From the sequence record NZ_CP084013.1: 64,000 bases of DNA. One strand, given 5' to 3'. This document shows positions 6,192 through 58,259 of this stretch, one piece after another (position 1 is the stretch's first letter; each line of letters starts with the position of its first letter). Both the position numbers and the translations under genes were made by a program. The notes beneath the pieces are model-generated. The model worked only from the letters and a program-made list of their open reading frames with translations, ran no database searches and had not been told where the DNA came from. Source of the stretch: a plasmid.

Positions 6192-6489
6192 TCGGGATCT
6201 CCTCCTTGATGCATTCGGGGCATTGCCCGTCCTTCCAGCCGGCCGGATCGATCATGATGTTCGTGCAGGTCGAGCATTCGGGCAGCCGGTGCGCCGGGCA
6301 GTAGTGCATGTCGCGTTCCAATTCGGGATGCTCGTCCTTGTACAGGATCTGCCAGCCGTCATCCTTCGCGTCGAACAGCAGATCGTCCTCGTACGCATAC
6401 CAGTCGTTGATCCGTTGTTCGCAGTTGTGGTCGTCGCATTCGAGCCTGAACCAAGCGCGGCTGTCAAACGTTTCTTTGATTCTTGCCAT
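6178..6489 (-). CDS. hypothetical Cys-rich (zinc-finger-like) protein
   Basis: Start 'MARIKETF' at 6489 is preceded by a GGAGG RBS. Contains 'CDDHNC...HYCPAHRLPECSTC...CPEC'. Confidence 0.45.
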   Translation of the reverse strand: MARIKETFDSRAWFRLECDDHNCEQRINDWYAYEDDLLFDAKDDGWQILYKDEHPELERDMHYCPAHRLPECSTCTNIMIDPAGWKDGQCPECIKEEIPNERS

Positions 6490-26634: not shown

Positions 26635-27933
26635 CTATCTGGATGGTTTGCGCCGCCAATAGTCATGCACCGGATGCCCATCACGATCGTGGGAGACGAC
26701 ATGCACCATGCCATTGTCGGGAAGGACGAAGCGTTGAGGACTTGGCATGCCACTGTTCGCGACACGAATCTTGTCCAACAGCTTGGCCTGCAGTTCCGGG
26801 GCCAGATCCATATACGCAGTATGCGCATTCAACCGGACCAAGTCGCTGATGCGGATAGCCTCGTCTCGTGCAGTGTCGGAATCGAATCCACAATAATCAG
26901 CCAACCTCGCATAATGGTCCGGCGTCACTTCACTGGCATGCTCCGCTCCTGAGAATGGCATCGCGAGCTTGTCCGTCAACCCCGGCCATACAGTCGTGGT
27001 CATCACATCGTATGCTGGGCTTAGTTTCCAGGACTCACCATCCAGCGAAGTAGGCATGACTGAATAGTTACGGGCATGCGCATCGCAATTATCGACAGCC
27101 ACGTTGAAGGCCAATCGTCGCAGCCACTCCTCCCCCAGTCTGCCGGACGGATCCATCTTCCGTAGGGTGGTCAGCGTATCGACGGCACTCACCTTGTACT
27201 TCTCGGATGATGGTAGGCCCAATGCCTGCACCATATCCTCCATCGGCAGACGAACCGGCATACCATTTTCGATACGACGATCGAACCGTTCCACGATATA
27301 GGTCTGCTGGCCGTTGAATTCCTGGATATCCGACTCCGGGGTTTCGATGCCGACCATCTTGGAAAGCATCATGGTCGCATGTTCTACTTCATCAGCGTCA
27401 TAAATGCCGGCCGGTTTAAGAATATGAGTCGACGGAACGGCGCCATTGGGCCACACCCATTCATCGCCTACACGGGACAAGGAGAATTTGCCTTGAGCTC
27501 CTGCCAAGGAAAATCTGGCACCTTTGTTCCTGACGAACCATGAATCAGGCGTCCGTTTGACGGCGGCAATACGTGTCGCGATTTCGTCATCGGTTGCTTC
27601 TGCAGGAGGCACACTGGCAATAGTCGGCATCTCATCGTTCCGAGAGAACACCAGCGCACCAGCTGAATCCACGTTTTCCAGCAAGTCGAAGGATTCCTGA
27701 GATTTCGCGCCGACTGCCTGCATCATGGCATACTTGGCGGCACCTGATTCCGGGAGTAAATTTTCTAGAAAATTCTCCGGTGCATCCTCGCGCCACTCTC
27801 CATCTTTCGGGAGGCTGAAACTTATCCGTGGAGCATTCCAATCATACTCAAACGCGACTCCTCGTTTGAGAGAGGTGAACACGCCAACGTGGGAGCCGTT
27901 CATCCAGACGTTTAGCCGATCACCTTTTCTCAT
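26635..27933 (-). CDS. hipA: HipA-family serine/threonine kinase toxin
   Basis: 'LRRLAFNVAVDNCDAHARNYSV' is the HipA catalytic-loop equivalent, and the N-terminal region has HipA-type coupling-domain character. The start overlaps the upstream stop (ATGA). Confidence 0.75.
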   Translation of the reverse strand: MRKGDRLNVWMNGSHVGVFTSLKRGVAFEYDWNAPRISFSLPKDGEWREDAPENFLENLLPESGAAKYAMMQAVGAKSQESFDLLENVDSAGALVFSRNDEMPTIASVPPAEATDDEIATRIAAVKRTPDSWFVRNKGARFSLAGAQGKFSLSRVGDEWVWPNGAVPSTHILKPAGIYDADEVEHATMMLSKMVGIETPESDIQEFNGQQTYIVERFDRRIENGMPVRLPMEDMVQALGLPSSEKYKVSAVDTLTTLRKMDPSGRLGEEWLRRLAFNVAVDNCDAHARNYSVMPTSLDGESWKLSPAYDVMTTTVWPGLTDKLAMPFSGAEHASEVTPDHYARLADYCGFDSDTARDEAIRISDLVRLNAHTAYMDLAPELQAKLLDKIRVANSGMPSPQRFVLPDNGMVHVVSHDRDGHPVHDYWRRKPSR

Positions 27934-28226
27934 GCCACCACGCATTCCGCAGGCAAGGCAGTGGCATCCACTCCAAGAACCTTCATTATCCGTCGAGTCG
28001 GAAGATATGGTGCAACGCCGGTGTCAATCAGCCGTTGCACCACGCTTGAATCGACTCGTGCTTTCTCGGCCACTTCATCGACGGTACGGTGCTGCATGAA
28101 CTCGGCCATGACCCTGCGCATACGTTCCGGTGATTCGATGAATCTCACGTTGCTGGCGGTTTTCGGCATGGCCTGCTTGATGCGCTGACGGTACTCGTCG
28201 CTAACCTGCCATTTCTCGTATATCAT
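27930..28226 (-). CDS. hipB: HTH antitoxin partner of HipA (HipB-like)
   Basis: 98 aa with the HTH 'HRTVDEVAEKARVDSSVVQRLIDTG'. Lies immediately upstream of hipA and is translationally coupled to it. Confidence 0.55.
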   Translation of the reverse strand: MIYEKWQVSDEYRQRIKQAMPKTASNVRFIESPERMRRVMAEFMQHRTVDEVAEKARVDSSVVQRLIDTGVAPYLPTRRIMKVLGVDATALPAECVVA

Positions 28227-28895: not shown

Positions 28896-29945
28896 TCAGC
28901 CCAACAAAACCCGCGACACCGCCCCCTCATCAGGCAACCCGGAATCCAACAATTCAGCCAAACGCGACGCAACACGATCGGCATCAACACCGGTGAACAT
29001 GCCACCCATCCATTCGGACATCAGCGTCCGGACATGCTCGCAGTCGGCGGAATGCACGTGACGTGCGGGACCTTTGCTCTCATCCACTACTTCAGCCTCA
29101 AGGGGAATATCAGCCGACTCGCTCTGCGCAGTCTGTCGCGTTGGAGCATCGGTGCGAGGATAATACTTGATCCCATGCCTGAACGGTTCGGCCCTCAAAT
29201 TCGGAGCCGCCTCCAAGACATTCGACAACGCCTGTTTGAACCTGCGCCGGAAGTCCTTCATCGGCAGGCCGGTGCCCTCGAACTGGTCATACAGTTGACG
29301 CCATGAAACGTAGGCGACGTGGTCGAGCCGGTATGTGCGGTACGTCAACCATATATAGACGTCCAACGCCCGCGCCGATTTGCCCAGACGCGAGATGACA
29401 TCCATGCTGAGTGGGACGCTTGGCTTCGACAGCTCGGCCCACATCTCGTCCGTGAACTGGATTGACGCGATGATGTCCTGTTCTGGCCTGAACTGTGTAC
29501 GGCCTTTTCTGGCGACGGTGAACGGCGTGCATTCGCCTTTGTTCTCACGACTCTCGTCGGTGTTCATGATGGAGATCGAGGTTCGCGCCAAGTTCATCAG
29601 CGTGTCCTCCGTCTCTTTCTGACAGCCGGAGTGGTTGGATATTCCGGTGTTGTCGCAGAATTCCTGGAAGCTGCCACGAAAGACAACAGTGTGGGTGTCC
29701 TGATCCACGTCGGGATTGTTCTTCATGCGAATCATGGACTGCACGTAGAGGAATATCAGTCGCGGGGTTTTCCCGTAGACCCATTCCTCGGGGCGACTGG
29801 GGGTTATGCGGACTGTTTCCCGACCGTTCGTTCTCTCTATGTAGGATGAGCTTGGTTTCGACACGGGGAAGAGGGCGAGTTTCGCCATGAGCGGCGGTGC
29901 GCCCGTGTTCATTTTCGTTGTGGCGATGGCGTTATTATTGGTCAT
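28896..29945 (-). CDS. repA: RepA-like plasmid replication initiator
   Basis: ACGGAG RBS. Winged-helix-like 'LDVYIWLTYRTYRL'. It is adjacent to the iteron array and paralogous to the ORFs at 51205-52185 and 61902-62666. Confidence 0.65.
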   Translation of the reverse strand: MTNNNAIATTKMNTGAPPLMAKLALFPVSKPSSSYIERTNGRETVRITPSRPEEWVYGKTPRLIFLYVQSMIRMKNNPDVDQDTHTVVFRGSFQEFCDNTGISNHSGCQKETEDTLMNLARTSISIMNTDESRENKGECTPFTVARKGRTQFRPEQDIIASIQFTDEMWAELSKPSVPLSMDVISRLGKSARALDVYIWLTYRTYRLDHVAYVSWRQLYDQFEGTGLPMKDFRRRFKQALSNVLEAAPNLRAEPFRHGIKYYPRTDAPTRQTAQSESADIPLEAEVVDESKGPARHVHSADCEHVRTLMSEWMGGMFTGVDADRVASRLAELLDSGLPDEGAVSRVLLG

Positions 29946-45139: not shown

Positions 45140-46625
45140 GGCTTGTCCCTGTCCAGCGGTAAAAGCGAGACATTCGTGATGATTGTCTCTCCCGCCTTTG
45201 ATTCCGTTTCCCCGAGGGGTTGCGGTGACGGAACATCATGGGATGGTTGGCTGCACCCCTGCGACGTCAAGCGTGTTGGCGTCGCACTGCATCACGGTAA
45301 GGTCGTAGCCTTTGTGACGCAGGTTCATCGCGGCTATCCGGTCGTCGTTCGACCGGTAGCCGCAGTTGCGGCAGCGGAACGTGTGCGTTTCCTTGTTGCG
45401 GTTCTTGCGGGACACGTATCCGCATCGGGGGCATGTCTGGCTCGTGTACGCTGGGTCCACTGCTATCGTGGCCTGCCCGTTGCGGGCGGCCTTGTATTCG
45501 ATGAACGAGCGGAGTTGGCTGAACGCCCACGAGACTTGCACGTAACGTTGTTGGACTTTCACGGTTTCCGCCGTATTGCGGATGCCTGTGAGGTCTTCGA
45601 GCGTGAAGAGCGTGTCCTTGCCGTACTGGTTGACGAGTGCCTTAGAGACCTGATGGTTGATGTCGGTCATCCAACGGTTTTCTCGACTGCCTATGGCTTT
45701 GAGACGTTTTCTCGCGCTGCGCGTGCCCCTGTGTTGCAACTGTTTGCGGAGTTCCTTGTATTTGCCGCGCCGGTGTTTCACCTCCTTCCCATCGTAGAAA
45801 ACGGTGCGCTCCCCGTCGTAGGAGGTAGCAAGGAACCGGATACCCAGGTCGATGCCGACGATGGTCTTCGGATGTTCCGTGGCATCCGGCGTTGGGATGG
45901 TGACGGGGATGAGCAGATGCCATTTGTCCCGCTTGCGGATGAGGCGTGCGGTTCCGAACCTCCCATGCCGGTATTGGTCGGGAATGCTGGCCCATTCGGC
46001 TTTCACTTTGATGCGCCCATCCATGACGGGGAGGCTGAACAGGCCTGTCTTGGTGGAGTACGAGTAGTCCCTGTTCCACAACAGGTCGGCACCGTCCGGC
46101 GCATACTGGGGTTTGATACTGTAATATGCTGGGATTTTCCTCCTCTTGCGCCTCTTCCCGTTCTTCTTACCTTTGCTCTCCTCGCGGAGGTTAGCGATTC
46201 GCGTGTGGATGGCCTTGTAGTTGGCGATGACCCGGCGTATCGCCGATTGGGTCATCTGCGCGAGCAGCCCATGGGTTTCGCGCAACTGGTGGTAGATGGC
46301 CTTGTTGATTTTCTTCTGGCTGAGCGTGTGCGTGGAGTCCACGTAGTCAGCCACGTCGTTGCAGCAGTCGGCGAACGTCGAACACAACGCTGCGAGAGCG
46401 TCCGCTTGCCGCCGTGTGGGCGATAGACGGACGCACATCGTCAACGTCAACTCAGCCATCAAACCTCCAATAAGACAAATAATATCATAAACTTAGTGGA
46501 AAGAAAAGTGGCGTTCACCCGCGACGACAAGCATCGCGGTACCCCGCCATAAACACTCATGGAATTGCCGAATCGCTGACTCTAGGAAAATGCCGGGTGG
46601 TTTTTACTTCCCGGCATTTTACCTG
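45140..46625 (-). mobile_element. solo-tnpB IS element (IS1341-like)
   Basis: tnpB only. An inverted repeat, AAAATGCCGGG...CCCGGCATTTT, at 46589-46622 flanks the 5' side. The omega-RNA region is expected between about 45130 and 45240. Confidence 0.6.
45236..46459 (-). CDS. tnpB: TnpB (IS605/IS1341 family)
   Basis: 'CPRCGYVSRKNRNKETHTFRCRNCGYRSNDDRIAAMNL' forms the zinc ribbon and RuvC-III motif. Confidence 0.8.
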   Translation of the reverse strand: MAELTLTMCVRLSPTRRQADALAALCSTFADCCNDVADYVDSTHTLSQKKINKAIYHQLRETHGLLAQMTQSAIRRVIANYKAIHTRIANLREESKGKKNGKRRKRRKIPAYYSIKPQYAPDGADLLWNRDYSYSTKTGLFSLPVMDGRIKVKAEWASIPDQYRHGRFGTARLIRKRDKWHLLIPVTIPTPDATEHPKTIVGIDLGIRFLATSYDGERTVFYDGKEVKHRRGKYKELRKQLQHRGTRSARKRLKAIGSRENRWMTDINHQVSKALVNQYGKDTLFTLEDLTGIRNTAETVKVQQRYVQVSWAFSQLRSFIEYKAARNGQATIAVDPAYTSQTCPRCGYVSRKNRNKETHTFRCRNCGYRSNDDRIAAMNLRHKGYDLTVMQCDANTLDVAGVQPTIP

Positions 46626-46649
46626 TTATACTGAATCTGTCCACATAGA
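46622..46649 (+). promoter_or_regulatory. conserved element motif
   Basis: TGTTATACTGAATCTGTCCACATAGAAA, about 32 nt before the ATG at 46681. Confidence 0.6.
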
Positions 46650-46680
46650 AAAAAGTGAAGTCAGGAGACCCAAATCCACC

Positions 46681-47505
46681 ATGCCCATCATCGAATTCGA
46701 CACGAAGATGCGAGGCTACGATCCCCAACAAGTCAATGACGCCGTAACCAATTTCCAGGACACCATCAACAAGTATGCGCAAGCAAACACTGATCTGAAG
46801 AGAACCCTGGATACGGTCAACAACCAGTTCACCCAGGCAAACCAAGACATCGATCAGCTGCAAGCCGAAAACAAGAAGCTCTCCGAACGGATCGAAGAAC
46901 TCGAAAAGCAGAACGACGATCTGGAAGCAAAACTCAAGAACAAGTACACGAGCGTGGGCGACGATGTGAGGAAACTCCTCGAAGACACCCAGACCGTTTA
47001 TCATGCTGCGGAAAAGAACGCAGCCGACATCAAGAACAAGGCGCTGCAGGAAGCTGAAAACATTCGCAAGCAGAGCCAGTCCGCCGCGGAGAAAGCGATA
47101 GTGGACGCGCGGCAGGTCGCCGAAAAGAACGTGAAGGAATCCCAAGCGAAGTCGAAGCAGATCATCGAATCCGCGCAGCAGTCCGCCGCACAGTTGCGTA
47201 AGGAAGCCGACTCGTATGCCACTGGACGGCAAAACATCGCGGAGCAGGCCGATGCAAGGGTTCGTGCGATTCTCGGCCGTCTTGAGGAGGCAAGCAAAGT
47301 GCTTGACAACGCCTACCAGTCCGGACGCAAGCCTAACGCCACTACAGTCCAGTCAGCTCCGAAGGATGCGCCAACACCGGTCATCGCCGGCCAGGCCACT
47401 AATCCGAACGAGGCGGATCTTGAAGACGATAGGACCATCGCCTTCGCTCAAATCCATGCGAAGAACACCGCATCCGCACCCGCGACCCCTGTTGACGCCC
47501 AATAA
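46681..47505 (+). CDS. DivIVA-domain coiled-coil protein
   Basis: The N-terminal 'FDTKMRGYDPQQVNDAV' is the DivIVA signature. The rest is a long coiled coil. Confidence 0.7.
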   Translation: MPIIEFDTKMRGYDPQQVNDAVTNFQDTINKYAQANTDLKRTLDTVNNQFTQANQDIDQLQAENKKLSERIEELEKQNDDLEAKLKNKYTSVGDDVRKLLEDTQTVYHAAEKNAADIKNKALQEAENIRKQSQSAAEKAIVDARQVAEKNVKESQAKSKQIIESAQQSAAQLRKEADSYATGRQNIAEQADARVRAILGRLEEASKVLDNAYQSGRKPNATTVQSAPKDAPTPVIAGQATNPNEADLEDDRTIAFAQIHAKNTASAPATPVDAQ

Positions 47506-47520
47506 GACCATTCCCGGAAC

Positions 47521-47763
47521 GTGAGAATCTTGATCCTCCAATACGTAATGGTTATGACCGGAGGATATGCCAGTTCATGGCTTATCCTCCATGTCGGCAT
47601 GCTGTTCGGGCAAGGCGCGAAGAACGCCGCTTCTCTGGACCGAATCAAGGAAGCCCGCTGTTGGAACATCGCATATTATCTGTGCGTCATCCTGACGTTC
47701 CTGTGCGTCATTGCCGGATCATTGGGTCTCATGCTCCTGTTCAAGAAGCTGATCATTGACTGA
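47521..47763 (+). CDS. hypothetical small membrane protein
   Basis: Two hydrophobic helices. A low-confidence call. Confidence 0.3.
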   Translation: MRILILQYVMVMTGGYASSWLILHVGMLFGQGAKNAASLDRIKEARCWNIAYYLCVILTFLCVIAGSLGLMLLFKKLIID

Positions 47764-47977
47764 AAAAACATCCCTCAAGCAGTCCCGTAATCCTTTCCTG
47801 ACCATCGGACGCTATGTCCGGCAGGTAATCGATGAAACCCGTAAGACGGTGACTCCAACCGCCCGCGAATGGATGGCCTGGAGTATTGCCGCATTCGTGT
47901 TCGTCATCCTGCTCATGATATTGGTCACGGGCATGGATTTCGGGCTCGGCAAACTCACTCTCATGGTGTTCGGGTGA
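47756..47977 (+). CDS. secE: SecE-like preprotein translocase subunit paralog
   Basis: 'RNPFLTIGRYVRQVIDETRKTVTPTAREWMAWSIAAFVFVILLMILVTGMDFGLGKL' matches the SecE pattern NPF..R.V..E.RKV.WP.R.E plus a TM helix and FG.GK. TTG start. Confidence 0.55.
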   Translation: MTEKTSLKQSRNPFLTIGRYVRQVIDETRKTVTPTAREWMAWSIAAFVFVILLMILVTGMDFGLGKLTLMVFG

Positions 47978-48183
47978 CGGTCACACATCCCGTGACCCTT
48001 GCCATGCTGCTATGGATGGGTATCGCCCTGCTCACGTTTCTTCTCATGAGCGTATGGACGGATAATCCACAGCATCGCAGCACCTATCGCCATTGGGCTG
48101 TCGCATACCTGACAGCCCTGATCATCTTCATCGCCATCTTCTATTCCGAAGGAACCCTATGGCCGTTCTCATCATCGTTTTGA
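47974..48183 (+). CDS. hypothetical small membrane protein between secE-like and secG-like
   Basis: GTGA overlap with the secE-like stop. Two TM helices. Confidence 0.3.
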   Translation: MTVTHPVTLAMLLWMGIALLTFLLMSVWTDNPQHRSTYRHWAVAYLTALIIFIAIFYSEGTLWPFSSSF

Positions 48184-48401
48184 AAACCATCGTCGCCGTC
48201 CTGAGCGTCCTGCTATCCCTGCTGATTCTTCTGCACAAAGGCAAGGGCGGGGGATTGTCCGACATGTTCGGCGGCGGCTTGACCGCAAACGCAGGCACAT
48301 CCGGGGTCGCGGAGAAGAACCTCAACCGTTGGACGGTCGGCATCGCGATCCTATGGGTTTTGCTGATCGTCTCGATCAGCCTCATCGCAAAAACCATCTG
48401 A
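48159..48401 (+). CDS. secG: SecG-like preprotein translocase subunit paralog
   Basis: GAAGGAA RBS. 'MAVLIIVLKTIVAVLSVLLSLLILLHKGKGGGLSDMFGGG...TSGVAEKNLNRWTVGIAILWVLLIVSISLI' is the classical two-helix SecG pattern with Gly-rich loops. Confidence 0.6.
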   Translation: MAVLIIVLKTIVAVLSVLLSLLILLHKGKGGGLSDMFGGGLTANAGTSGVAEKNLNRWTVGIAILWVLLIVSISLIAKTI

Positions 48402-48524
48402 CGAAACAGGAGACCTCATGCTAATTGCCATCATCTGCCTATTTACGGGCTTCACCCTTGGCTTCTTCACCGCAGCCCTATGCCAAGCAGCATCACACTC
48501 AGATTCTGACAGAAAGGACAACCA

Positions 48525-48707
48525 ATGAAAAACAACTGGTTCTGCCCCAACTGCGGGCAGCCGATGGAAGCGCAACGCCACGTGGACAATCCCACCGGCC
48601 GTATCACATGGACAATCGGCTGCCTCAACCCGAAACACTTCCACACGCGCGGCTACATGAACGCCGCCATCGCCGAAATCCAACTCGAAAAACTCCTCCA
48701 CCAGTGA
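48525..48707 (+). CDS. small zinc-ribbon protein
   Basis: 'WFCPNCGQPM...GCLNPKHFH'. Its stop overlaps the GTG start of the methyltransferase. Confidence 0.35.
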   Translation: MKNNWFCPNCGQPMEAQRHVDNPTGRITWTIGCLNPKHFHTRGYMNAAIAEIQLEKLLHQ

Positions 48708-50404
48708 AATACGTCAGCATCTTCAGCGGCATTGAAGCCGCCACCGTCGCATGGCATCCACTGGGATGGGAGCCGCTGGCCTTCAGCGAAATCGACCCAT
48801 TCCCCTCAACCGTCCTGCAACACCATTACCCGGATATCCCGAATCTTGGAGATATCACGAAAATCGATTGGAGCCCGTATGTGGGAGCAGCAGACATTGT
48901 TGTCGGAGGTAGCCCCTGTCAAAGCTTCTCTGTCGCAGGCAAGAGGGAAGGACTCGCAGGAGCTTCCGGACTCATGTTCGAATACATTCGAGCGGTACGT
49001 GAACTCCGTCCACGTTGGTTTGTCTGGGAGAACGTCCCAGGAGCGTTCACAAGCGAGCGGGGGGAGGCTTACCGCCAGCTCCTGTCAGAGATGGATGCGC
49101 TCGGGTATGGTCTGGCATGGCGAGTATTGGATGCGCAGTTTTTCGGTGTGGCCCAAAGACGCGAGCGTGTGTTCCTTGTTGGAAGTCTTGGAACCATGCG
49201 TTGCGCGGAAGTACTTTTTGAGCGCGAAAGCCTGTCGTGGAATCATCAGTCGAGCCGACAGAAGAGGCAAGCCCTTACCGAAGAGGCTCAGGAACGCGTT
49301 GGAGAAGCAGATCATGATTCTGGCTGCCTGAATCCCGGCGAAACCCAGAGTCGAAGGGTTTATCCGGCTTCCGGCGTATATCCGACGTTGTCCACGAGAG
49401 AAAAGTCAGGGCAAAATCAGGAAAGCGTTTTCACCCAGTTCGGTGATGATGTCGCCGGCACTCTCACCTCACGATACGATAGTTCCCCCTGCGTTGACCG
49501 TGGAGCAAACGTCGTCGTTGACGAACGGGATAAAGTATTCCTTTGCCAGACGGCGCAAACCGGCAGCAACGGGAAACTCGTCAAACAGGACGATGTAATG
49601 AACACGTTGGATCGGACGAACAGCACCGCAGTGGCCGCATTGGACTTCAATCCGACCGATGCCAGACTCCGGTATGCGAATGATGACGTCAGCCAGACAT
49701 TGACCGCACGGGCCGGAACCGGAGGCAACCAAGTCCCATTGGTGCAGGTGCAGCCGCTCGCGTTCCTGTATAACCAAGGTGCGAAGGCCCGGAGTCTAGG
49801 GATAAGTGAAATAAGCCCTACGTTAAAAACCGACCATAATCCGGTTGCAGCATTCGCTTCAAATCAGCGTGACGAGGTTCGTGAACTGGAAGTCGCAGGC
49901 GCATTGGCCGCGCAGCCTGGCATCAAACAGCAGACGTACATCTGCCGGGCCGACGGACAGACGAACGCGATGGAAGGCGAAAATCTCGCTCCCACGTTGA
50001 CCTCGCACGCGAAGAAGGATCCACCGCTCATCTATCCTGCTGAAGATTCAACCGGGGAAGATGAGCCTGTCACCTCGCAGATTCACGGCGGGAAACCCGG
50101 CGGCGGGAAAGGTGCCTTAATCCAACGGGATATGAGCGCCACATTGTCCACTCATAACACCCAGACGCCGATAACAGGCGACCACGAGAAGAGAGATCTC
50201 ACCGTCCGTCGGCTGACACCACGAGAATGCGAACGCTTGCAAGGCTTCCCCGACGATTACACCGATATCCCATACCGCAACAAGGAACACGCTCCGGACG
50301 GTCCCCGTTACAAGGCGTTGGGCAACAGCATGGCCGTACCGGTCATGCGATGGATCGGAGAACGCATTCGGACGGTCGAAGAAGCCGCCGAAACAACCGA
50401 TTAG
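48704..50404 (+). CDS. dcm: DNA (cytosine-5)-methyltransferase (Dcm-type), apparently orphan
   Basis: Motif I 'VSIFSGIEAA', motif IV 'GGSPCQSFSVAGKREG' and motif VI 'VWENVPG'. GTG start at 48704. No restriction endonuclease gene is evident nearby. Confidence 0.8.
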   Translation: MKYVSIFSGIEAATVAWHPLGWEPLAFSEIDPFPSTVLQHHYPDIPNLGDITKIDWSPYVGAADIVVGGSPCQSFSVAGKREGLAGASGLMFEYIRAVRELRPRWFVWENVPGAFTSERGEAYRQLLSEMDALGYGLAWRVLDAQFFGVAQRRERVFLVGSLGTMRCAEVLFERESLSWNHQSSRQKRQALTEEAQERVGEADHDSGCLNPGETQSRRVYPASGVYPTLSTREKSGQNQESVFTQFGDDVAGTLTSRYDSSPCVDRGANVVVDERDKVFLCQTAQTGSNGKLVKQDDVMNTLDRTNSTAVAALDFNPTDARLRYANDDVSQTLTARAGTGGNQVPLVQVQPLAFLYNQGAKARSLGISEISPTLKTDHNPVAAFASNQRDEVRELEVAGALAAQPGIKQQTYICRADGQTNAMEGENLAPTLTSHAKKDPPLIYPAEDSTGEDEPVTSQIHGGKPGGGKGALIQRDMSATLSTHNTQTPITGDHEKRDLTVRRLTPRECERLQGFPDDYTDIPYRNKEHAPDGPRYKALGNSMAVPVMRWIGERIRTVEEAAETTD

Positions 50405-50463
50405 ACAACAGAAACAGGTGGATCGTCGCAGAAGAGGGGGCGACGTTCCTCAAAAAAACAATA

Positions 50464-51213
50464 CAGCGATAGGCCACGATCTTGTTCAGGATTTCCTTTT
50501 GTTCGGCGAAATCACCAGAAGCAAGAAGAATCATGGCCGTCGCTCGACTCCGCAAGGAAAATCAAGTGGACAACACCCTCCTAGGAGATCAAGATCGTGG
50601 CCTATCGGTGTAAATGTATTCACCGATAGGCCACTATCGTTCGTTCTCGTTCTTACTGCTATAAAAGAGTATGTCCAGTATGTAGTATGACTATAAGCAC
50701 TGCCCGTCAGCCCTTATAGGAGAAGCGGTTTGAGCAGGTTCGTTACACCGATAGTCCACGGATTCGGCAGTGATATTCCACGGAAACGACACTGATAGGT
50801 CACTAAAACAGCAGCGATAGTCCACTATCATTGCATGGATACTCCACGTTGCAAGACCATCGTCAAAGGCGATTGCACCGATAGTCCATCATTGGATGCA
50901 CCGATAGGCCACTATCCGCGAAAAGTGCCGGATAGTGGCAGTATACAAGGCATGGAACCGTCGGATAAGCAACGCAGTAATACTGCGGAAGAAAGGTTTT
51001 TGCACCGATAGGCCATCAACAGAGACAAGAAAACAGCATCGATAGGCCACTACGTGTGGGATGAAATCCACGAATCAACTTCAAAAAAATTGGGAAACTG
51101 CACCGATAGGCCACGTGTCGATACAGCGATATGCCATCAGCATCAAAAACCGACTGCATTAAGCACTGATCTGCATCAGCGAATAAGGTGGGACGATTAG
51201 TGGCCTATCGCTG
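50464..51213 (+). repeat. array of about 13 copies of a 14-bp motif CACCGATAGGCCAC, in both orientations at irregular 20-60 bp spacing
   Basis: Copies at 50464, 50597(rev), 50621, 50746, 50790, 50811, 50875, 50898, 51003, 51037, 51100, 51124 and 51200(rev). The pair 50597/50621 forms a palindrome around TAAATGTAT. The array lies 3' of dcm and 3' of the RepA-like gene at 51205-52185. Confidence 0.75.
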
Positions 51214-52185
51214 CCAATCGCCCCGCCCCTCGTCCAAAGCACGCCGTTCCGCCTTGGGTGGGACGGACGTTGGCGACGGGTGCAGGATGATGCCGTCCCG
51301 GGTGGTTTCCACGTTCGCGGCGGGATACACGTCGTGAATCTTCTTCAATGCTTCACGGAACTTGGCTTTGAACACGCGGCGTTCCTTGATGCTGTCGCCG
51401 AAACGTCCGTGCAGCCAATCCCAATCCAATGTGAGGTCGTGATGCAGGTTGCGGAATGTTCCGGTCAGCCACACGTACACGTCGTAGGGGAGCACTGATT
51501 TGCCGGACAGCAGGTAGTTGGTGGCACGAGTGTCGAATGGTGCCGACTCCTGGGCGAGCCTGTCCCACACTTCATCGGTGAGGATGAACTTGGCGCCGCT
51601 GAAATCCTGATTATTGTTATCGTTCAGGAAGCTGACGGCCTTCACCATCTGCATGTTCACGGAGTCGAACCGATCCCGGTTGCCCGCAAACCCGGTTTTC
51701 TGCCTGATGCTGATATGACAGTACAGGAGACGGCGCAACTGTTCCTGCAAACGTTTCGATGACTGTCCTCCACGGGGTATGCCGAGCTCTTCGGACAACT
51801 GGTACATGCTGGGAATCGTGATGGTGTGCTGCGACGGGTCAACGGTCGGGGTTTTCCTTGTTCCCGCAGAGCGAATCTGCTTTGCCATCCACGCCATCAA
51901 CAGTCGGGGATATTTCCCGTAGGGGAAGTCCCTTGACCTGGTGAGGCTATCGATACCGGCTTCGAGGATGTATTCGACGGTACTGTTGTCTTTGCTGACG
52001 AAGTCGGTGCCTTCCGCCGGGGGAGTGGCGGGGAAAAGGGTGCTGGTGAGGATGCTGTGCCCGTACCAGATTTCCTTACTGTCCGGCAAACGGTTTTCGA
52101 TGTCTGAGATCGTGGCTACCCGGTCGAGCACGAGGTCGGTTGAATGGGTAGCTGGTTTCGTGTTGTCCGGACTGTTGTTGGTCAT
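51205..52185 (-). CDS. RepA-like DNA-binding/initiator protein (paralog 2)
   Basis: Shares 'YGK.PRL' ('FPYGKYPRLLMAWMAKQ') and 'YDVYVWLTGTFRNL' with the RepA-like protein at 28896-29945. Confidence 0.55.
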   Translation of the reverse strand: MTNNSPDNTKPATHSTDLVLDRVATISDIENRLPDSKEIWYGHSILTSTLFPATPPAEGTDFVSKDNSTVEYILEAGIDSLTRSRDFPYGKYPRLLMAWMAKQIRSAGTRKTPTVDPSQHTITIPSMYQLSEELGIPRGGQSSKRLQEQLRRLLYCHISIRQKTGFAGNRDRFDSVNMQMVKAVSFLNDNNNQDFSGAKFILTDEVWDRLAQESAPFDTRATNYLLSGKSVLPYDVYVWLTGTFRNLHHDLTLDWDWLHGRFGDSIKERRVFKAKFREALKKIHDVYPAANVETTRDGIILHPSPTSVPPKAERRALDEGRGDWQR

Positions 52186-52900: not shown

Positions 52901-53285
52901 TCCGCGCTGGGAATCCCGGTGCTAAAGCACCGGGAGGAAGTCAATGGGGCTGACAGGCTTTCGATAGCCTGCCGGAAACCATTTGCTACGTGCCGGAGGC
53001 CGGTAAGGACAACCGTCATCAACCTTGCCACAAGAATAGACGCCAACACCGTTTCTTCTTCCCGTTTCACCCTCGTAGCGTGAAACCCGACTTTGATCCC
53101 ATTGCCGATTAACGGGTCAAAGCCGGAAAACTTTGAATCGGACTGGTCGGACAGTCGGACGATGGATTCGCCCGACCAGTACATGAACATCGTCTACAAG
53201 CCGTGCGGGTTCGCCGAACGCACCCGTCCACGGATGATCTTCCCCACGCAAGTGGGGATAAACCTACGCACGTGACAGCAAGCAA

Positions 53286-53335
53286 AGGCTGACAGCAGGC
53301 CAGATCCGAGTTCGATTCTCGGCAGCTCCACGACC
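53286..53335 (+). other. tRNA 3'-half-like fragment (T-arm + acceptor strand only)
   Basis: CCGAG TTCGATT CTCGG CAGCTCC A has a canonical T-loop, but there is no matching 5' acceptor strand upstream. Confidence 0.3.
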
Positions 53336-53438
53336 CTGATCCATCTCCCATGAGCTTGTGCAGACTCACGGTCTGCGGGTACAGATGAATCGGGCACGGT
53401 ACGCATCGCACCGTGACGGACGACAGAAGCGATGCACC

Positions 53439-53520
53439 GGTGGTGTGGCCCAGCGGCGACGGCAGCAGACTGTAAATCTGCGACAAGGAAACACCGGAGG
53501 TTCGAGTCCTCCCGCCACCA
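53439..53520 (+). tRNA. tRNA-Tyr (anticodon GTA)
   Basis: Acceptor GGTGGTG/CGCCACC. Anticodon arm GCAGA CTGTAAA TCTGC. Long variable arm. T-arm GGAGG TTCGAGT CCTCC. Close to the E. coli tRNA-Tyr layout. Confidence 0.8.
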
Positions 53521-53708
53521 CTATCCGCCTGGTTGCAAACAGGCGGATTAACAGGTAGCGGCGCCTTCAAGGCCGTGCTGTGGTTTTCGTTTGCACACAG
53601 TATCTAAACAACAAACGGATTTTATCCGCTGTCAGGCCAGTCTCATTAGTCTGACAGCGAACGGTAAAAGCCGGAATGATACGCGCCATGAGACGACGCG
53701 TTCCGGCC

Positions 53709-53768
53709 GGCTTCGTAGCTCAAACGGCGGAGCATGCATGGTTGGTGGTTCGAATCCACCCGGAGCCA
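53709..53768 (+). pseudogene. truncated tRNA-like element lacking an anticodon arm (60 nt)
   Basis: Acceptor GGCTTCG/CGGAGCC, D-arm GCTC...GAGC and T-arm GGTGG TTCGAAT CCACC. Only 10 nt sit where the anticodon arm should be. Confidence 0.4.
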
Positions 53769-54025
53769 CGTTTTTGACAGGTCTTACAACCGGAGAGTCG
53801 AGGACTGTGAAGAAAAACTGGAAGAGCGTGCAAATCCTAGGTCGCACGCTTGGAAGGGGAGGTTTCGCAGGAGGTTAGGAAAACCGGTGGAGACAGTCTA
53901 AACACGCGAAAGAATCAAGATGAAAGCATCGTGGTACTGGCTTAAGACGGTGCCAGAATCTGAGGAAATCGCGTTTAATAGGGCACGTACGTAGCTGGTA
54001 AGCCACGGAGTCCTGTCAAAAATAT

Positions 54026-54099
54026 CGGATTGTGGCGCAGTTTGGTAGCGCACGTGCTTTGGGAGCATGGGGTCGCAGGTTCGAATCCTGTCAATCCGA
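54026..54099 (+). tRNA. tRNA-Pro (TGG)
   Basis: Acceptor CGGATTG/CAATCCG. U8. Anticodon arm CGTGC TTTGGGA GCATG, with G37. Confidence 0.8.
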
Positions 54100-54179
54100 C
54101 TCGGAGACCAGCCATCCCTCTTTCGGCTGGCGGACTATACGTCACCGCCGTGCGACGTATCCGAAAAAAGCACGGCAAT

Positions 54180-54254
54180 GCGGATGTGGTGCAGTGGCAG
54201 CACGCCTGCTTCCCAAGCAGGAAACCGCGGGTTCGAACCCCGTCATCCGCTCCA
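54180..54254 (+). tRNA. tRNA-Gly (CCC), CCA encoded
   Basis: Acceptor GCGGATG/CATCCGC. Anticodon loop TTCCCAA. T-loop TTCGAAC. The 3' end reads TCCA. Confidence 0.8.
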
Positions 54255-54389
54255 TCCGGAAAACCAAAACAATGGATCTGATCCAACAATGGGACTCGTA
54301 ACCGTCCTTTCCATGGGACGTTTCCGGAGAAACATGGACGAACAGCCTCGGCATGGGCGCACATCGTCTAGGAAGAAAACATGCCAGTC

Positions 54390-54461
54390 GCCCCGGTAGC
54401 TCAGAGGAAGAGCAGGTGCCTTTTAAGCACTGGGTCCGGATATCGTAATTCCGTCGGGGCA
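54390..54461 (+). tRNA. tRNA-Lys (TTT) with a non-canonical T-arm
   Basis: Acceptor GCCCCGG/TCGGGGC. Anticodon arm GGTGC CTTTTAA GCACT. The T-region CGGA TATCGTAAT TCCG lacks the GTTC/TPsiC consensus. Confidence 0.55.
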
Positions 54462-54625
54462 CGATGCTTGGTACATCGCCGAGCATAAGCGCATCAATCT
54501 ATTATCGGATAGGCTGCGGCAACTTCTTCTTCCGGCCGCGCGCGAAACAAGGGAAGGAAAACACACAGTGCGACGGACCAGGGAAGGGCCTATAACCCAG
54601 ATCCCATAACAGTCCGTCGTACGGT

Positions 54626-54697
54626 GCCTCTGTAGCTTAAATGGTAGAGCAACGGTCTGAAGCACCGTGGATGCTGGTTCGATTCCAGACGGAGGCA
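54626..54697 (+). tRNA. tRNA-Phe (GAA)
   Basis: Acceptor GCCTCTG/CGGAGGC. Anticodon arm ACGGT CTGAAGC ACCGT. Confidence 0.75.
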
Positions 54698-55025
54698 CGA
54701 AGCAATCCATCCGATCAATGGACTGCTTTCAGGGAGTGATCGAACAATCGCATCGGAAACGAGGCGATAAGATGAGCCGGGCCCGGCAGGGTGGTTTGCG
54801 ACCGAACCGGCGGCACGTCCAGAGGGGATCTGACATGATCTCGTTTGTCCTCGACGTTGCTGGTAAAACCCAATCCAGTCTCCCGATTCCCCTCCATCTG
54901 TCATTCAGGACGGATGGGGAGGACGCTCTTTTTGCAGCGATGGTCTCCGGAGCGACATCAATGAGGACCATGCCGAACACGGCCCGGCACAGGCGTACGT
55001 CGTTAAAGGAACGAAATGTGCCATC

Positions 55026-55101
55026 GCCCTCGTAGCTCAATCGGATTCAGAGCGTTGGTCTACGGAACCGGAGGTTGCGGGTTCGAACCCCGCCGAGGGC
55101 A
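55026..55101 (+). tRNA. tRNA-Arg (ACG)
   Basis: Acceptor GCCCTCG/CGAGGGC. Anticodon loop CTACGGA. T-arm GCGGG TTCGAAC CCCGC. Confidence 0.8.
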
Positions 55102-55152
55102 CTCGGAGCAGGAAGCTATTCCGCTGCCTATCTTCGGCTTCCTGCTCCACAT

Positions 55153-55227
55153 GCGTCGGTAGCTTAACGGCAGAGTACCGGTCTCCAAAACCGGTGGGTG
55201 TGAGGTCGAGACTCACCCGACGTGCCA
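55153..55227 (+). tRNA. tRNA-Trp (CCA), CCA encoded
   Basis: Anticodon arm CCGGT CTCCAAA ACCGG. T-arm GTGAG GTCGAGA CTCAC. The 3' end reads G-CCA. Confidence 0.7.
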
Positions 55228-55352
55228 GGACGGTATTGTTTGGCTCCTTACTCACTCACGGATTCGTCAAGCCGAATGATACCGTTCCACCCGGTTCCGA
55301 TCGTCGTTTGAAGGATTTCCTATTCTCTTCGGCTGTTCGACCGGAACCATCG

Positions 55353-55434
55353 CCCCGTTGGCGGAACTGGTAGACGCATCCGGCTCAAACCCGGATTCCT
55401 GACGGAGTGAGGGTTCAACTCCCTCATGGGGCAC
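55353..55434 (+). tRNA. tRNA-Leu (CAA), type II
   Basis: Acceptor GCCCCGT/ATGGGGC. Anticodon arm TCCGG CTCAAAC CCGGA. Long variable arm. T-arm GAGGG TTCAACT CCCTC. Confidence 0.8.
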
Positions 55435-55687
55435 TATCCGTTGGAACCTTTTCGCACTCGCTTTGAAAAGATTTCAACGGATATTCTTCCGATTGGCGTG
55501 CCTAGTTTCTTTCTTCTTTCATTGACAGGTACGGCATGTTCCAGCTGCCTTGGAGTCGGACAGTGGAAGAAAAAAACGACTCCAAATAATCTTGGATGGC
55601 CGGTTTGAAAACAGATAACCAATGCGAAATTACTCCTTTGGAAAAGGGTTGTCGCTTTTTCTTGAACCACCCGGCCATCCACCATCC

Positions 55688-55762
55688 GCTTCCGTAGCTC
55701 AGTGGAATCAGAGCAGACGGCTTCTAATCGTCCGGTCGTGGGTTCGAATCCCACCGGGAGCA
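55688..55762 (+). tRNA. tRNA-Arg (TCT)
   Basis: Acceptor GCTTCCG/CGGGAGC. Anticodon arm GACGG CTTCTAA TCGTC. T-arm GTGGG TTCGAAT CCCAC. Confidence 0.8.
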
Positions 55763-55812
55763 CGAGATCCACACGAATACGTCAACCAGTTTGTTCCTTC
55801 GTGCGGATCGGT

Positions 55813-55897
55813 GGAGTAGTGGCAGAGCGGTCGAATGCGACTGTCCCGAAAGCAGCAGGGGCGCAAGCCCCCGGAGGTTCGAATCCTCCCTACTCCG
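55813..55897 (+). tRNA. tRNA-Ser-like (CGA), type II, with unusual C33 and an A27:C43 mismatch
   Basis: Acceptor GGAGTAG/CTACTCC. Ser-type D-arm. Anticodon arm ACTGT CCCGAAA GCAGC. Variable-arm hairpin AGGGGCGCAAGCCCCC. T-arm GGAGG TTCGAAT CCTCC. Confidence 0.55.
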
Positions 55898-55976
55898 CGA
55901 ACCCCGCATGAAAATCGTTCCCATGAGGGGTTTATCGAGGTTTGGCCGGTGTGCCCCGTACTGAAAACACTGGCAT

Positions 55977-56062
55977 GGATGGTGGGCCGTGCGGCAAAGG
56001 CGCAGTCCTGCTAAGACTGTTGGGGCGGAAGTCCCTGGCGAGTTCGACTCTCGCACCATCCG
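55977..56062 (+). tRNA. tRNA-Ser (GCT), type II
   Basis: Acceptor GGATGGT/ACCATCC. Anticodon arm CAGTC CTGCTAA GACTG. Long variable arm. T-arm GCGAG TTCGACT CTCGC. Confidence 0.8.
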
Positions 56063-56179
56063 CTAGCCGATCTGCAGTGATAGGCCACGGGATAGGACCT
56101 GGAATCCAGTCAGCAAAACGGGTTGGATCGGCATGGCGGAACGCAGTCGGGCATACGTGTCCGATGCGTTCGCGCACAT

Positions 56180-56250
56180 TCCTCCTTGGTGTAACGGCAG
56201 CACACGGGTCTTTGGAACCCATAGTCCTGGTTCGAAACCAGGAGGAGGAG
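56180..56250 (+). tRNA. tRNA-Gln (TTG)
   Basis: Acceptor UCCUCCU/AGGAGGA, with the U1:A72 pair typical of bacterial tRNA-Gln. Anticodon loop CTTTGGA. T-arm CCTGG TTCGAAA CCAGG. Confidence 0.75.
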
Positions 56251-56358
56251 CTTAGCGGCAGCACCTCGAATTGATTTTCCCTCTACACTCGATTCGACGT
56301 TTGTTGTACCGGACATACAGGAGGTCAGGCGCCAACCCAAGCCGCGAAACGACGCCAC

Positions 56359-56431
56359 GCCCTTGTAGCTCAGTGGATAGAGCGTCCGTCTCCGGAACGG
56401 AAGGCCACGAGTCCGATTCTCGTTGAGGGCA
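56359..56431 (+). tRNA. tRNA-Arg (CCG)
   Basis: Acceptor GCCCTTG/TGAGGGC. Anticodon arm TCCGT CTCCGGA ACGGA. T-arm ACGAG TCCGATT CTCGT. Confidence 0.7.
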
Positions 56432-56526
56432 CGCACGAAAACTCCGCCAACCATAATGCACGGAGCCCTTCTTCTCTTCTCTCTCAAACCGTCGCGCCTC
56501 GTACGGCTCGTGCATCACGAGGCAAC

Positions 56527-56599
56527 GCCCTTGTAGCTCAACGGATAGAGCGCCGGTTTCCTAAACCGGGCGCAGCCGGTCCGACTCCGGCCATGGGCA
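56527..56599 (+). tRNA. tRNA-Arg (CCT)
   Basis: Acceptor GCCCTTG/CATGGGC, with one U:U mismatch. Anticodon arm CCGGT TTCCTAA ACCGG. T-arm GCCGG TCCGACT CCGGC. Confidence 0.7.
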
Positions 56600-56603
56600 C
56601 GAT

Positions 56604-56678
56604 GCCTTGTTAGCTCAGTCGGTTAGAGCGCGGAGCTCATAACTCCATGGTCGTTGGTTCAAGCCCAACACGAGGCAC
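56604..56678 (+). tRNA. tRNA-Met (CAT), elongator-type
   Basis: Acceptor GCCTTGT/ACGAGGC. Anticodon loop CTCATAA. T-arm GTTGG TTCAAGC CCAAC. Confidence 0.75.
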
Positions 56679-56809
56679 TAGGATACCGTCGTCAACGTCA
56701 CCGCCTGTTCTCTCGATCCATGGGGAATGGGGATGGAGCGATGGATGGCATTGCAGCTTTTAGTCCTTTCAGCTTAGGCTAAGCCGTTCAGCGTCGGCAT
56801 CCGATAATC

Positions 56810-56883
56810 GCATTGCTAGCTCAGTCGGTTAGATCACCCTGCTCATAACGGGGAGGTCGTTGGTTCGATTCCAGCGCAATGCA
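56810..56883 (+). tRNA. tRNA with CAT anticodon and CCC/GGG anticodon stem (initiator-like stem with paired 1:72; Met or Ile2)
   Basis: Acceptor GCATTGC/GCAATGC. Anticodon arm CCCTG CTCATAA CGGGG. T-arm GTTGG TTCGATT CCAGC. Confidence 0.65.
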
Positions 56884-57014
56884 CGAGTGCCGTATTTTGA
56901 CGGTTCCCGCACTCGGTAAAAACGGAACCGTTGGAGTCCCGACCGGCCTCCGTCGTGATAAATCCCCGGTCAGGCAAACGCATGGGTCGTACGATCATGA
57001 CGCGCAACCGTGCG

Positions 57015-57084
57015 GGGCGTTGGTGTAATGGCAGCACGCCACCCCCTGTGGGTGGAGATCCGGGTTCGAATCCCGTGGCGTCCG
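57015..57084 (+). tRNA. tRNA-Gln-like (CTG), slightly irregular
   Basis: D-arm nearly identical to tRNA-Gln(TTG). Anticodon arm CCACC CCCTGTG GGTGG, with C33. T-arm CGGG TTCGAAT CCCG. Acceptor pairing GGGCGTT/GGCGTCC includes G:U pairs. Confidence 0.5.
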
Positions 57085-57125
57085 CTAAGGAATCCGCTTC
57101 TGATACGGTGTGCGGATTCCTGTTT

Positions 57126-57197
57126 GCGGTGTTAGCACAACGGTTAGTGCCTCAGTCTTCCAAACTGATTACGCGGGTTCGATTCCCGTACACCGCT
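57126..57197 (+). tRNA. tRNA-Gly (TCC)
   Basis: Acceptor GCGGTGT/ACACCGC. Anticodon arm TCAGT CTTCCAA ACTGA. T-arm GCGGG TTCGATT CCCGT. Confidence 0.8.
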
Positions 57198-57615
57198 CGA
57201 TACGATTCCATGCCCGTTGGGAGTTCCCGGCGGGGAAGCCATGACCATGCGACTCGTGTCCGATGATCCGCGCCTCCGTTTGTTCGACGGACACGCGGAT
57301 ATCGCCGGCGCCCATCATTCCAGGATGATGCGAACAGCCCCCGTCGGAGGGGTCGGCGCGAATCCGATCTGCCCATCCGCCAAGTGCGGACAGGGTTTCC
57401 TGAGTCGTAATCGATTACGCCTCTTGTCAGCCGATCCACATGATGTGGAAACGGTCTCGGTGGAGCATGGGCGTCATAGCCCGTGATCCTCGTCATGCCT
57501 CATGCCGTAGTATGCGCGTCCACCGCAAGCATGAGTGCAAGGATCCGGCACGAGTGGCCGGATCGATTGTGGACTGTGCGGATATTGCGACCTCGCAAGG
57601 GTGGTATCCGCACAT

Positions 57616-57689
57616 GCTTTCGTAGCCCAACCGGTAGAGGCAACAGTCTAAGGAACTGTCCAGTCCGGGTTCGAACCCCGGCGAAAGCA
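57616..57689 (+). tRNA. type-I tRNA with apparent anticodon AAG (identity uncertain)
   Basis: Acceptor GCTTTCG/CGAAAGC. Anticodon arm ACAGT CTAAGGA ACTGT. Short variable arm. T-arm CCGGG TTCGAAC CCCGG. An AAG anticodon would read Leu codons, but the fold is not a type-II Leu tRNA. Confidence 0.5.
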
Positions 57690-57965
57690 CCAGCGGAAGC
57701 AACGGCGTCAACGCCACCCGATCCGGTTCGAACGTCTGACGGAACGGGAACGATGCTACGGTAGGTTCTCTCCATAACTGGGACCCGTAACCGTTGCAGC
57801 GCCCACTTCCGCTCATATTCTTGCGGAATATGATGTCAACGCCACCACCCGCCCGCTGCCATATTGGGGCGGAGTGGAACGATGGTCAAGGCGCAGGCCT
57901 GCACCTCAGTGGCCTGAACAGAACCGCCTCTCCAGCATCGTATCCGCAACACCGCTTCGTCCTTT

Positions 57966-58040
57966 AACGGTAGGATGCTCTGTTTTTTTTTGGAGTAATG
58001 CGGGTTCGAATCCCGTCGAAGCACGATGGGCCCAGTGGCC
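57966..58040 (+). pseudogene. tRNA-like element whose anticodon region is a T9 homopolymer (degenerate Lys-TTT-like or slipped)
   Basis: Acceptor GCTTCG/CGAAGC and T-arm GCGGG TTCGAAT CCCGT are present, but the anticodon arm reads CTCTG TTTTTTTTT GGAG. Confidence 0.35.
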
Positions 58041-58162
58041 ACATGCGAAAAAACTGGGTTCCCGAATGGGAGCAGTCTGTGGCCGATGGCATGAACCGGC
58101 CGCAGGACAAGCATCCCTGCCTCGCATGGCCCATCCGCCGTTCCTCATGCCGGAACGGTTCC

Positions 58163-58235
58163 GCCGTCGTAGCTCAGCTGGCAGAGCAGCGCCCTCGTAA
58201 TGCGCAGGTCACCGGTCCGAATCCGGTCGATGGCT
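58163..58235 (+). tRNA. tRNA-Thr (CGT)
   Basis: Acceptor GCCGTCG/CGATGGC. Anticodon arm GCGCC CTCGTAA TGCGC. T-arm ACCGG TCCGAAT CCGGT. Confidence 0.75.
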
Positions 58236-58259
58236 CTTTCTCCACTAAAAACCGACCTG

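Follow-up and report, generated by a model that had tools for sequence, protein, structure and literature searches.

Why a conjugative megaplasmid should carry genes for two subunits of the general protein-export channel is the question raised by a 64,000-nucleotide stretch of plasmid record NZ_CP084013.1 (hereafter the window, meaning the whole stretch of DNA that was analysed). On its + strand, secE (47756-47977; 73 amino acids (aa), TTG start) and secG (48159-48401; 80 aa, ATG start) encode the predicted preprotein translocase subunits SecE and SecG, and between them lies a small open reading frame (ORF) with two predicted transmembrane (TM) segments (47974-48183; 69 aa, GTG start), an arrangement found exactly where an initial annotation, made from the sequence alone, had placed it. 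SecE is essential in the bacteria that have been studied and SecG belongs to the core of the channel, and the genes of both are usually viewed as fixed chromosomal housekeeping genes; in Escherichia coli, SecY is stabilised by SecE and translocation is stimulated by SecG. The answer favoured here, with a probability of about 0.6, is that the plasmid genes encode functional SecE and SecG paralogues, which would act as accessory or hybrid SecYEG subunits and aid the export of plasmid-encoded proteins.

Both products are genuine members of the SecE and SecG families, as judged by matches to curated profiles. SecE scores 44.4 bits against PF00584 (cut-off 22.7, profile positions 2-53 of 55) and 50.3 bits against TIGR00964 (cut-off 27.55, positions 2-57 of 57), while SecG scores 54.5 bits against PF03840 (cut-off 29.2, profile positions 1-69 of 70) and 57.1 bits against TIGR00810 (cut-off 30.85, positions 2-72 of 73). 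A profile of SecE matches the solved SecE chains 7xha_E and 5eul_E end-to-end over 57 residues (E ~1e-5); the corresponding SecG profile has no match in the PDB at E 0.01, and a scan of PHROGs with SecE, the middle ORF, SecG and the accompanying small ORFs returned no match. According to hydropathy, SecE has one hydrophobic stretch (residues 36-69) and an N-terminal part rich in K, R and E, and SecG has two hydrophobic stretches (residues 1-30 and 55-80) around GKGGGLSDMFGGGLTANAGTSG, its loop being GKGGGLSDMFGGG. The short forms of Gram-positive bacteria have one TM segment in SecE and two in SecG, and the plasmid copies resemble canonical bacterial SecE and SecG in family, length and topology. 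They also share the motifs GR..RQ..E.RK.VTP and DFGLGK of SecE (read here as NPF..GRYVRQV..E.RK.V.P and the tail DFGLGK) and GKGGG.SDMFGGG and NLNRWT of SecG. The full-length, above-cut-off matches together with the TM hydropathy confirm the identities that had been proposed from such motifs.

The DNA around the locus is 96.7-98.1% identical to four complete plasmids of Bifidobacterium longum (CP143940, CP065396, CP065398 and CP146883; 184-198 kb) and 86% identical to pMP7017 (KM406416), the 190-kb conjugative megaplasmid of B. breve JCM 7017; positions 1-25000 of the window match the same plasmids. With near-identical DNA, a common gene order, RepA, a tRNA array and a transfer-messenger RNA (tmRNA) to go by, the source is identified as a pMP7017-family conjugative megaplasmid of B. 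longum. The window encodes two RepA proteins, a VirB4-like AAA_10 protein of 1473 aa, FtsK-type proteins, a CHAP/lysozyme protein, HipA and several copies of TnpB/IS605, and contains no homologue of NusG, TpiA or SecY, so that the location on a mobile element, away from the chromosomal loci, can be taken over from the initial annotation as it stood. Direct orthologues are present on pMP7017 and the B. longum megaplasmids in the same order (small TM ORF, secE, two-TM ORF, secG, zinc-ribbon ORF), although pMP7017 has an MmeI-type restriction-modification system in place of dcm. The genes are already labelled in public records, secE and secG being named by the Prokaryotic Genome Annotation Pipeline (PGAP) in the RefSeq records of pMP7017 and the four B. 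longum plasmids. The present comparisons go beyond the annotation in three respects: the pair is retained across a family of Bifidobacterium elements, it forms a lineage of its own, and it is linked to secY. The sec genes go unmentioned in the pMP7017 literature that was searched, outside which the original description (Bottacini 2015) lay, and no discussion of the spread of secE-secG across Bifidobacterium mobile elements was found in the literature searched.

Chromosomal SecY, SecE (75 aa), SecG (82 aa) and SecA have been listed for B. longum, B. breve and other species (PMC4472781). A SecE-profile scan of one genome per species recovered 80 Bifidobacterium loci, all of them canonical secE-nusG, with nusG directly downstream except at two loci where the contig ends just past secE; B. 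longum and B. breve are missing from this set, probably since the pattern used for scanning does not match the SecE of either. For secG, the one genome checked is that of B. thermophilum, in which the canonical gene follows pgk-tpiA. The window genes, in contrast to such loci, precede no nusG-rplK and follow no pgk-tpiA: they stand side by side within an operon-like string that also includes a DivIVA gene, three small TM ORFs and a DNA methyltransferase gene. Window SecE is 48-68% identical to the canonical SecE of the 80 species, and over the core of the protein the identity is 55-69%, whereas canonical sequences average 82% with one another. In a neighbour-joining tree of the 62-residue SecE core, a split recovered in 315 of 500 bootstraps separates 21 element-borne sequences (some assigned by their genomic context, the others by clustering with those) from 55 distinct canonical ones. 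Several alignment columns are diagnostic; in one of them all 21 element copies have R and all 55 canonical sequences have K. A phylogeny had been suggested initially as a check for derivation from the host, and for SecE it puts the element copies on a branch of their own. Window SecG shares 85-89% identity with its counterparts on pMP7017 and an element of B. breve, as compared with 70-72% for four named SecG sequences of Bifidobacterium that were treated as canonical (including those of B. thermophilum, B. goeldii and B. pullorum), the context of which was checked in one. On these comparisons the plasmid genes are neither chromosomal copies nor recent captures.

The pair had been described as an unusual cargo, but it is not a one-off: the nearest relatives of window SecE and SecG are themselves element-borne, and the two genes are conserved across a broad family of Bifidobacterium elements. 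In B. breve, a SecG that is 86-87% identical (P0027, which NCBI labels plainly as SecG of B. breve) is encoded in a block consisting of secE, secG and a 60-aa ORF (L003-L006), with genes for a DUF2637 protein, a CHAP/lysozyme protein and a PIF1 helicase as neighbours. This block resembles a conjugative element integrated into the chromosome of B. breve, and probably a common one, since P0027 is listed in 829 index blocks; its contigs reach 2.59 Mb. Elements of another type (P0171), found in 269 index blocks, have secE-secG with variable genes upstream and an ADP-ribosylglycohydrolase gene downstream. More distant relatives include P0137, P0138 and twenty IMG/VR contigs of 31-217 kb with secE-secG. 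In L012, L013 and L103-L118, a RepA that is 53-56% identical to window RepA is encoded 3-5 kb downstream of secG, and in four of these (L012, L013, L103 and L105) secE, secG and the RepA gene are the only genes within 10 kb in common with the window; distant relatives of this kind measure ~100-220 kb. The IMG/VR contigs L099-L118 are catalogued as viral, but four of them have a SecE 97-99% identical to that of this plasmid, for which reason the entries look like megaplasmids and not phages. A tblastn search with SecG matched only the five known Bifidobacterium plasmids among plasmids and phages, and no phage, a result that says little about rarity because the sensitivity of a short hydrophobic query with the low-complexity filter on is poor. 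The gap between secE and secG varies among these elements. No gene occupies it in L003, L012, L013 and L015, and unrelated insertions are found elsewhere: soluble ORFs in L105 (10252-10930), a TnpB/IS605 gene in L014 (6856-8073), and in L106 (10252-11600) an extra ORF that bears the radical-SAM-like motif CxxxCxxC.

Some of these elements also carry secY. In animal-gut metagenome contigs of 35-111 kb (L007-L009), secE, secG and secY are contiguous and are followed by crgA and an intein-bearing nrdD; a dCMP deaminase gene precedes secE there, and nrdD encodes an anaerobic ribonucleotide reductase with an intein and a homing endonuclease. In the four B. longum megaplasmids, secY is located about 31 kb from secE and secG (CP143940, 79767-81137; L098, 9001-10371), where it adjoins whiB and a type I-E CRISPR-Cas locus, a position that synteny places about 16 kb past the end of the window. 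The SecY of these sister plasmids is 77% identical to that of L007-L009. It scores 404.6 bits against TIGR00967 (cut-off 253.6) and falls below the cut-offs of the SecY2 models (162 bits for a cut-off of 353, and 149.9 bits for a cut-off of 249.6), according to which it is a SecY of canonical type and not a SecY2.

Comparison with pMP7017 indicates purifying selection on both genes: the ratio of nonsynonymous to synonymous divergence (dN/dS) is 0.15 for secE (dS 0.93) and 0.15 for secG (dS 0.35). The ORFs that accompany them have somewhat higher ratios, 0.27 for the 60-aa ORF after secG (dS 0.32), 0.34 for the hydrophobic ORF upstream of secE (dS 1.45) and 0.35 for the middle ORF (dS 0.65), and against more distant elements the ratios are 0.13-0.40 wherever dS is unsaturated. 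Because dN/dS is low in all five, these ORFs behave as real genes under constraint.

If the favoured reading is correct, plasmid SecE and SecG would become membrane-inserted partners of a SecY, which in the B. longum megaplasmids could be the plasmid's own canonical-type SecY, encoded some 31 kb away, and in pMP7017 would be the SecY of the host. The outcome would be extra or hybrid SecYEG channels, and these may raise or adapt the capacity for insertion and export of the conjugation machinery, the cell-wall hydrolase and surface proteins; given the roles of SecE and SecG in E. coli, extra copies would plausibly raise channel capacity. Channel subunits borne on the plasmid might also lessen its dependence on each new host, an argument of self-sufficiency that has already been published for the tRNAs and tmRNA of pMP7017 (PMC10832533). 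Several observations weigh against this account. No specific client protein of the plasmid Sec subunits has been identified. The secY gene is outside the 64-kb window and known from the sister plasmids only, and none was found on pMP7017 by tblastn at E <= 1e-10. The transcriptome paper on pMP7017 makes no mention of secE or secG in its text or supplement (PMC10832533). The split between element and canonical SecE is only moderately supported (63%, over 62 alignment columns), on account of the shortness of SecE, and the canonical set is without the SecE of B. longum itself. Finally, secG has decayed in one related element (L119, considered further below), so the pair cannot be indispensable in every element.

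Conceptually, the nearest precedent is that of the 'Hodor' conjugative megaplasmids (>300 kb) of Bacillota from the human gut, which encode a co-transcribed SecY-SecG-SecE set proposed by its authors to export giant plasmid-encoded proteins (2026 preprint, PMC12934698). The present plasmid is likewise a gut conjugative megaplasmid with Sec channel subunits of its own, but its host belongs to the Actinomycetota and the plasmid is smaller (~184-198 kb). Its secE and secG lie together with secY ~31 kb away or undetected, whereas the Hodor set is contiguous, and the giant S-layer-type proteins that are the suspected clients in Hodor have no counterpart identified here. The locus is not of the Hodor operon type, in which the contiguous sec set stands beside trigger factor and sortase B genes; a link to either turned up in none of the scans, no search having been aimed at them. 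Even so, taken together with the Hodor plasmids of Bacillota, the Bifidobacterium elements suggest that megaplasmid-encoded Sec channels may be a recurring theme. The accessory SecA2/SecY2 systems of Gram-positive bacteria (with Asp proteins) and the SecA2-only systems of actinobacteria are likewise second sets of Sec components, presumed to serve a subset of exported proteins. They are defined by SecA2 and/or SecY2 and located on chromosomal islands, whereas here the extra components are SecE and SecG and the location is a conjugative plasmid; since the SecY of the sister plasmids does not belong with SecY2, accessory Sec offers the looser analogy.

The surroundings of the pair bear on how it may be expressed and with what it may act. 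On the + strand, 46681-50404 consists of eight tightly packed ORFs, from a DivIVA gene to a methyltransferase gene, with successive intergenic gaps of 15, -8, -4, -25, 16, -4 and -4 nucleotides (nt). The first of them (46681-47505), preceded by the ribosome-binding site AGGAGA, encodes a DivIVA-family coiled-coil protein of 274 aa (PF05103, 40.5 bits, cut-off 28), the homologue of which in CP143940 is named 'cell division protein DivIVA' by PGAP. It is followed by the small hydrophobic ORF (47521-47763; 80 aa from a GTG start, although PGAP uses a later start and 69 aa for the homologue), the stop of which overlaps the start of secE by 8 nt. The middle ORF overlaps the stop of secE by 4 nt (GTGA), and its end overlaps the start of secG by 25 nt, secG having the ribosome-binding site GAAGGAA. 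Next are a putative 36-aa single-TM ORF (48418-48528; recognised by sequence reading and hydropathy, with the ribosome-binding site GGAGA), which overlaps its successor by 4 nt, and the gene for the 60-aa CxxC-containing (zinc-ribbon-like) protein that accompanies secG (48525-48707). The last gene of the overlapping string (48704-50404), again with a 4-nt overlap, encodes a C5 cytosine DNA methyltransferase of 566 aa (PF00145, 196 bits; TIGR00675, 194.9 bits), annotated as dcm in the RefSeq plasmids. The pair was initially placed between a DivIVA gene and a methyltransferase gene; both are present as flanks, but the methyltransferase gene does not adjoin secG, two ORFs intervening. Beyond the string, on the - strand, lies a gene for a RepA-family protein (51205-52185), 'replication protein RepA' in CP143940 and pMP7017.

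The overlapping starts and stops (GTGA and ATGA) would fit co-transcription of the string, and neighbouring genes are probably translationally coupled. The sole promoter-like site on the + strand of 46300-50600 is a sigma-70-like sequence 5' of the DivIVA gene (46603-46632; TTTACT-18 nt-TATACT with a TG extension), which is to be regarded as a candidate only, since such sites are no more numerous than in shuffled sequence; the same interval has no terminator-like site on the + strand. Transcription of the string probably starts at this candidate. A promoter motif of the element's own had been proposed to drive secE and secG, but none is found directly in front of secE, the TTG start of which lies within the preceding ORF. 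One of four genes for TnpB/IS605 OrfB-type proteins with a Cas12f-like TNB domain (780-2243, 12488-14146 and 16224-17345 on the + strand, 45236-46462 on the - strand) is situated immediately 5' of the promoter candidate.

The small ORFs of the string have few relatives. Neither the middle ORF nor the 80-aa upstream, 36-aa and 60-aa ORFs gave anything above noise in Pfam and NCBIfam, and no relative of the upstream hydrophobic ORF was found in the more distant secE-secG elements. The 60-aa ORF is also conserved behind secG in pMP7017, L119 and the element of B. breve (L003-L006; 93-102 bits). For the middle ORF, a set of 1.84 billion representative proteins contains only six relatives at E <= 0.001: a repetitive protein of 806 aa, apparently spurious, and otherwise orthologues in the same plasmid family, two apparent deletion fusions, and P0250, which is 34% identical and encoded directly after secE in L119 (GCA_006408855.1, JFAN01000017.1). 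In L119, secE and the homologue of the middle ORF are intact despite the decay of secG, a remnant of which (1456-1956; KGKGGG..ANAGT.G.AE.NL.RW) is fused in frame upstream of the homologue of the 60-aa CxxC protein. The middle ORF is thus a real gene, restricted to certain lineages and inclined to remain beside secE, for a small membrane protein, and its two-TM product may be a lineage-specific partner of SecE. That it is a diverged duplicate of SecG was considered and rejected, the profile-profile probability being 1.8%. Certain proteins encoded on metagenome contigs (P0090, P0248, P0142 and P0143) are apparent in-frame deletion fusions, which join the N-terminus of the middle ORF to SecG, the N-terminus of SecE to the C-terminus of the middle ORF, or the upstream 80-aa ORF to the C-terminus of SecE; these may be natural recombinants between TM-coding segments or artefacts of assembly.

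Other readings of the locus can be weighed against this background. The most far-reaching is that a super-family of Bifidobacterium megaplasmids and integrated elements keeps a separately evolving Sec channel of SecE, SecG, often SecY and small TM partners, which in the pMP7017 lineage would be co-expressed with DivIVA, dedicated to the plasmid, possibly targeted to the pole, and needed for the transfer apparatus or for establishment in a new host; taken as a whole, this is speculative and rather unlikely. A narrower proposal, that of a DivIVA-guided device for polar export in conjugation, in which DivIVA would bring SecE, SecG, the small TM proteins and SecY to the cell pole as the site of assembly of the transfer apparatus and cell-wall hydrolase, would explain why DivIVA heads the same overlapping string. 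It would suit a plasmid with a VirB4-like ATPase, FtsK-type proteins and a CHAP/lysozyme protein, and it accords with the association of sec genes with CrgA on other elements and of the sister-plasmid secY with WhiB, these being actinobacterial factors of division and polarity. The linkage to DivIVA, however, is limited to the pMP7017 lineage, none being seen in L012, L013, L015 or L103-L118, and the proposal is accordingly judged distinctly unlikely.

It might instead be supposed that secE and secG are captured housekeeping genes without a function for the plasmid, either decaying or carried along neutrally. The secG remnant of L119, the metagenomic deletion fusions (P0090, P0248, P0142 and P0143) and the tolerance of the secE-secG gap for unrelated insertions are what such hitch-hiking could produce, but many synonymous changes have accumulated in both genes at a dN/dS of 0.15, and the products still match their hidden Markov models at full length and above the cut-offs. 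Moreover, the pair comprises the only locally conserved genes, besides that for RepA, in distant relatives, and it occurs in hundreds of index blocks and in several types of element, all of which makes the absence of a function very unlikely. The initial annotation had suggested that the copies could tailor the translocon of the host to T4SS components or act against host defences, and both roles are speculative. A role in conflict has as low a probability as the absence of a function: the plasmid proteins might stand in for the SecE and SecG of the host and make SecYEG resistant to a phage protein, toxin or bacteriocin directed at it, or might turn the host channel to the plasmid's advantage, as exclusion or addiction. 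The methyltransferase in the string, HipA, the CRISPR-Cas locus beside the sister-plasmid secY, and the substitutions fixed in element SecE relative to canonical SecE would all be in keeping with this, but no Sec-targeting toxin was found nearby (PHROGs gave no match, and PADLOC was outside the scan), and the full secE-secG-secY sets of related elements suggest the building of channels over the modification of those of the host. That the pair is simply the ordinary chromosomal secE and secG of the host, or a very recent copy of them, has next to no probability, because, clearly Bifidobacterium-like as both proteins are in their identities to chromosomal SecE and SecG, that reading is refuted by context and similarity: the 97-98% match of the window to plasmids, its RepA and conjugation genes, the different canonical gene orders, the fixed differences and separate branch of element SecE (at most 69% core identity to any canonical sequence), and the other lengths of the B. 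longum chromosomal proteins.

In Bifidobacterium from the gut, secE and secG thus belong to the long-retained core of common mobile elements, under purifying selection and sometimes together with secY. If the copies work, such elements alter the make-up of the export channel of their hosts, and this could have consequences for the transfer and host range of the plasmids, for the proteins that probiotic and infant-gut strains secrete or display on their surface, and for how 'housekeeping' markers are read in metagenome bins. The conjugative pMP7017 has been transferred into the laboratory strain B. breve UCC2003, and the two together offer a tractable system in which to study extra or hybrid SecE and SecG.

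Elsewhere in the window, the - strand carries a gene for a HipA-family toxin kinase and two separate RepA-family genes (26635-27945, 28896-29945 and 51205-52185); pMP7017 reportedly has two putative replicases, RepA and RepB. A tmRNA gene followed by 20-21 tRNA genes occupies 52946-58236 of the + strand, and the same tmRNA and tRNA array has previously been described for pMP7017 (PMC10832533). Relative to the tag published for pMP7017 (..FTLAA), the tag peptide of the window tmRNA, ANTVSSSRFTLVA, has one residue changed. A protein of 595 aa encoded on the - strand (6464-8251) has both an AAA_33 kinase-like domain and a T4-type RNA ligase domain and resembles an RNA repair enzyme, located on the same plasmid as the tRNA array.

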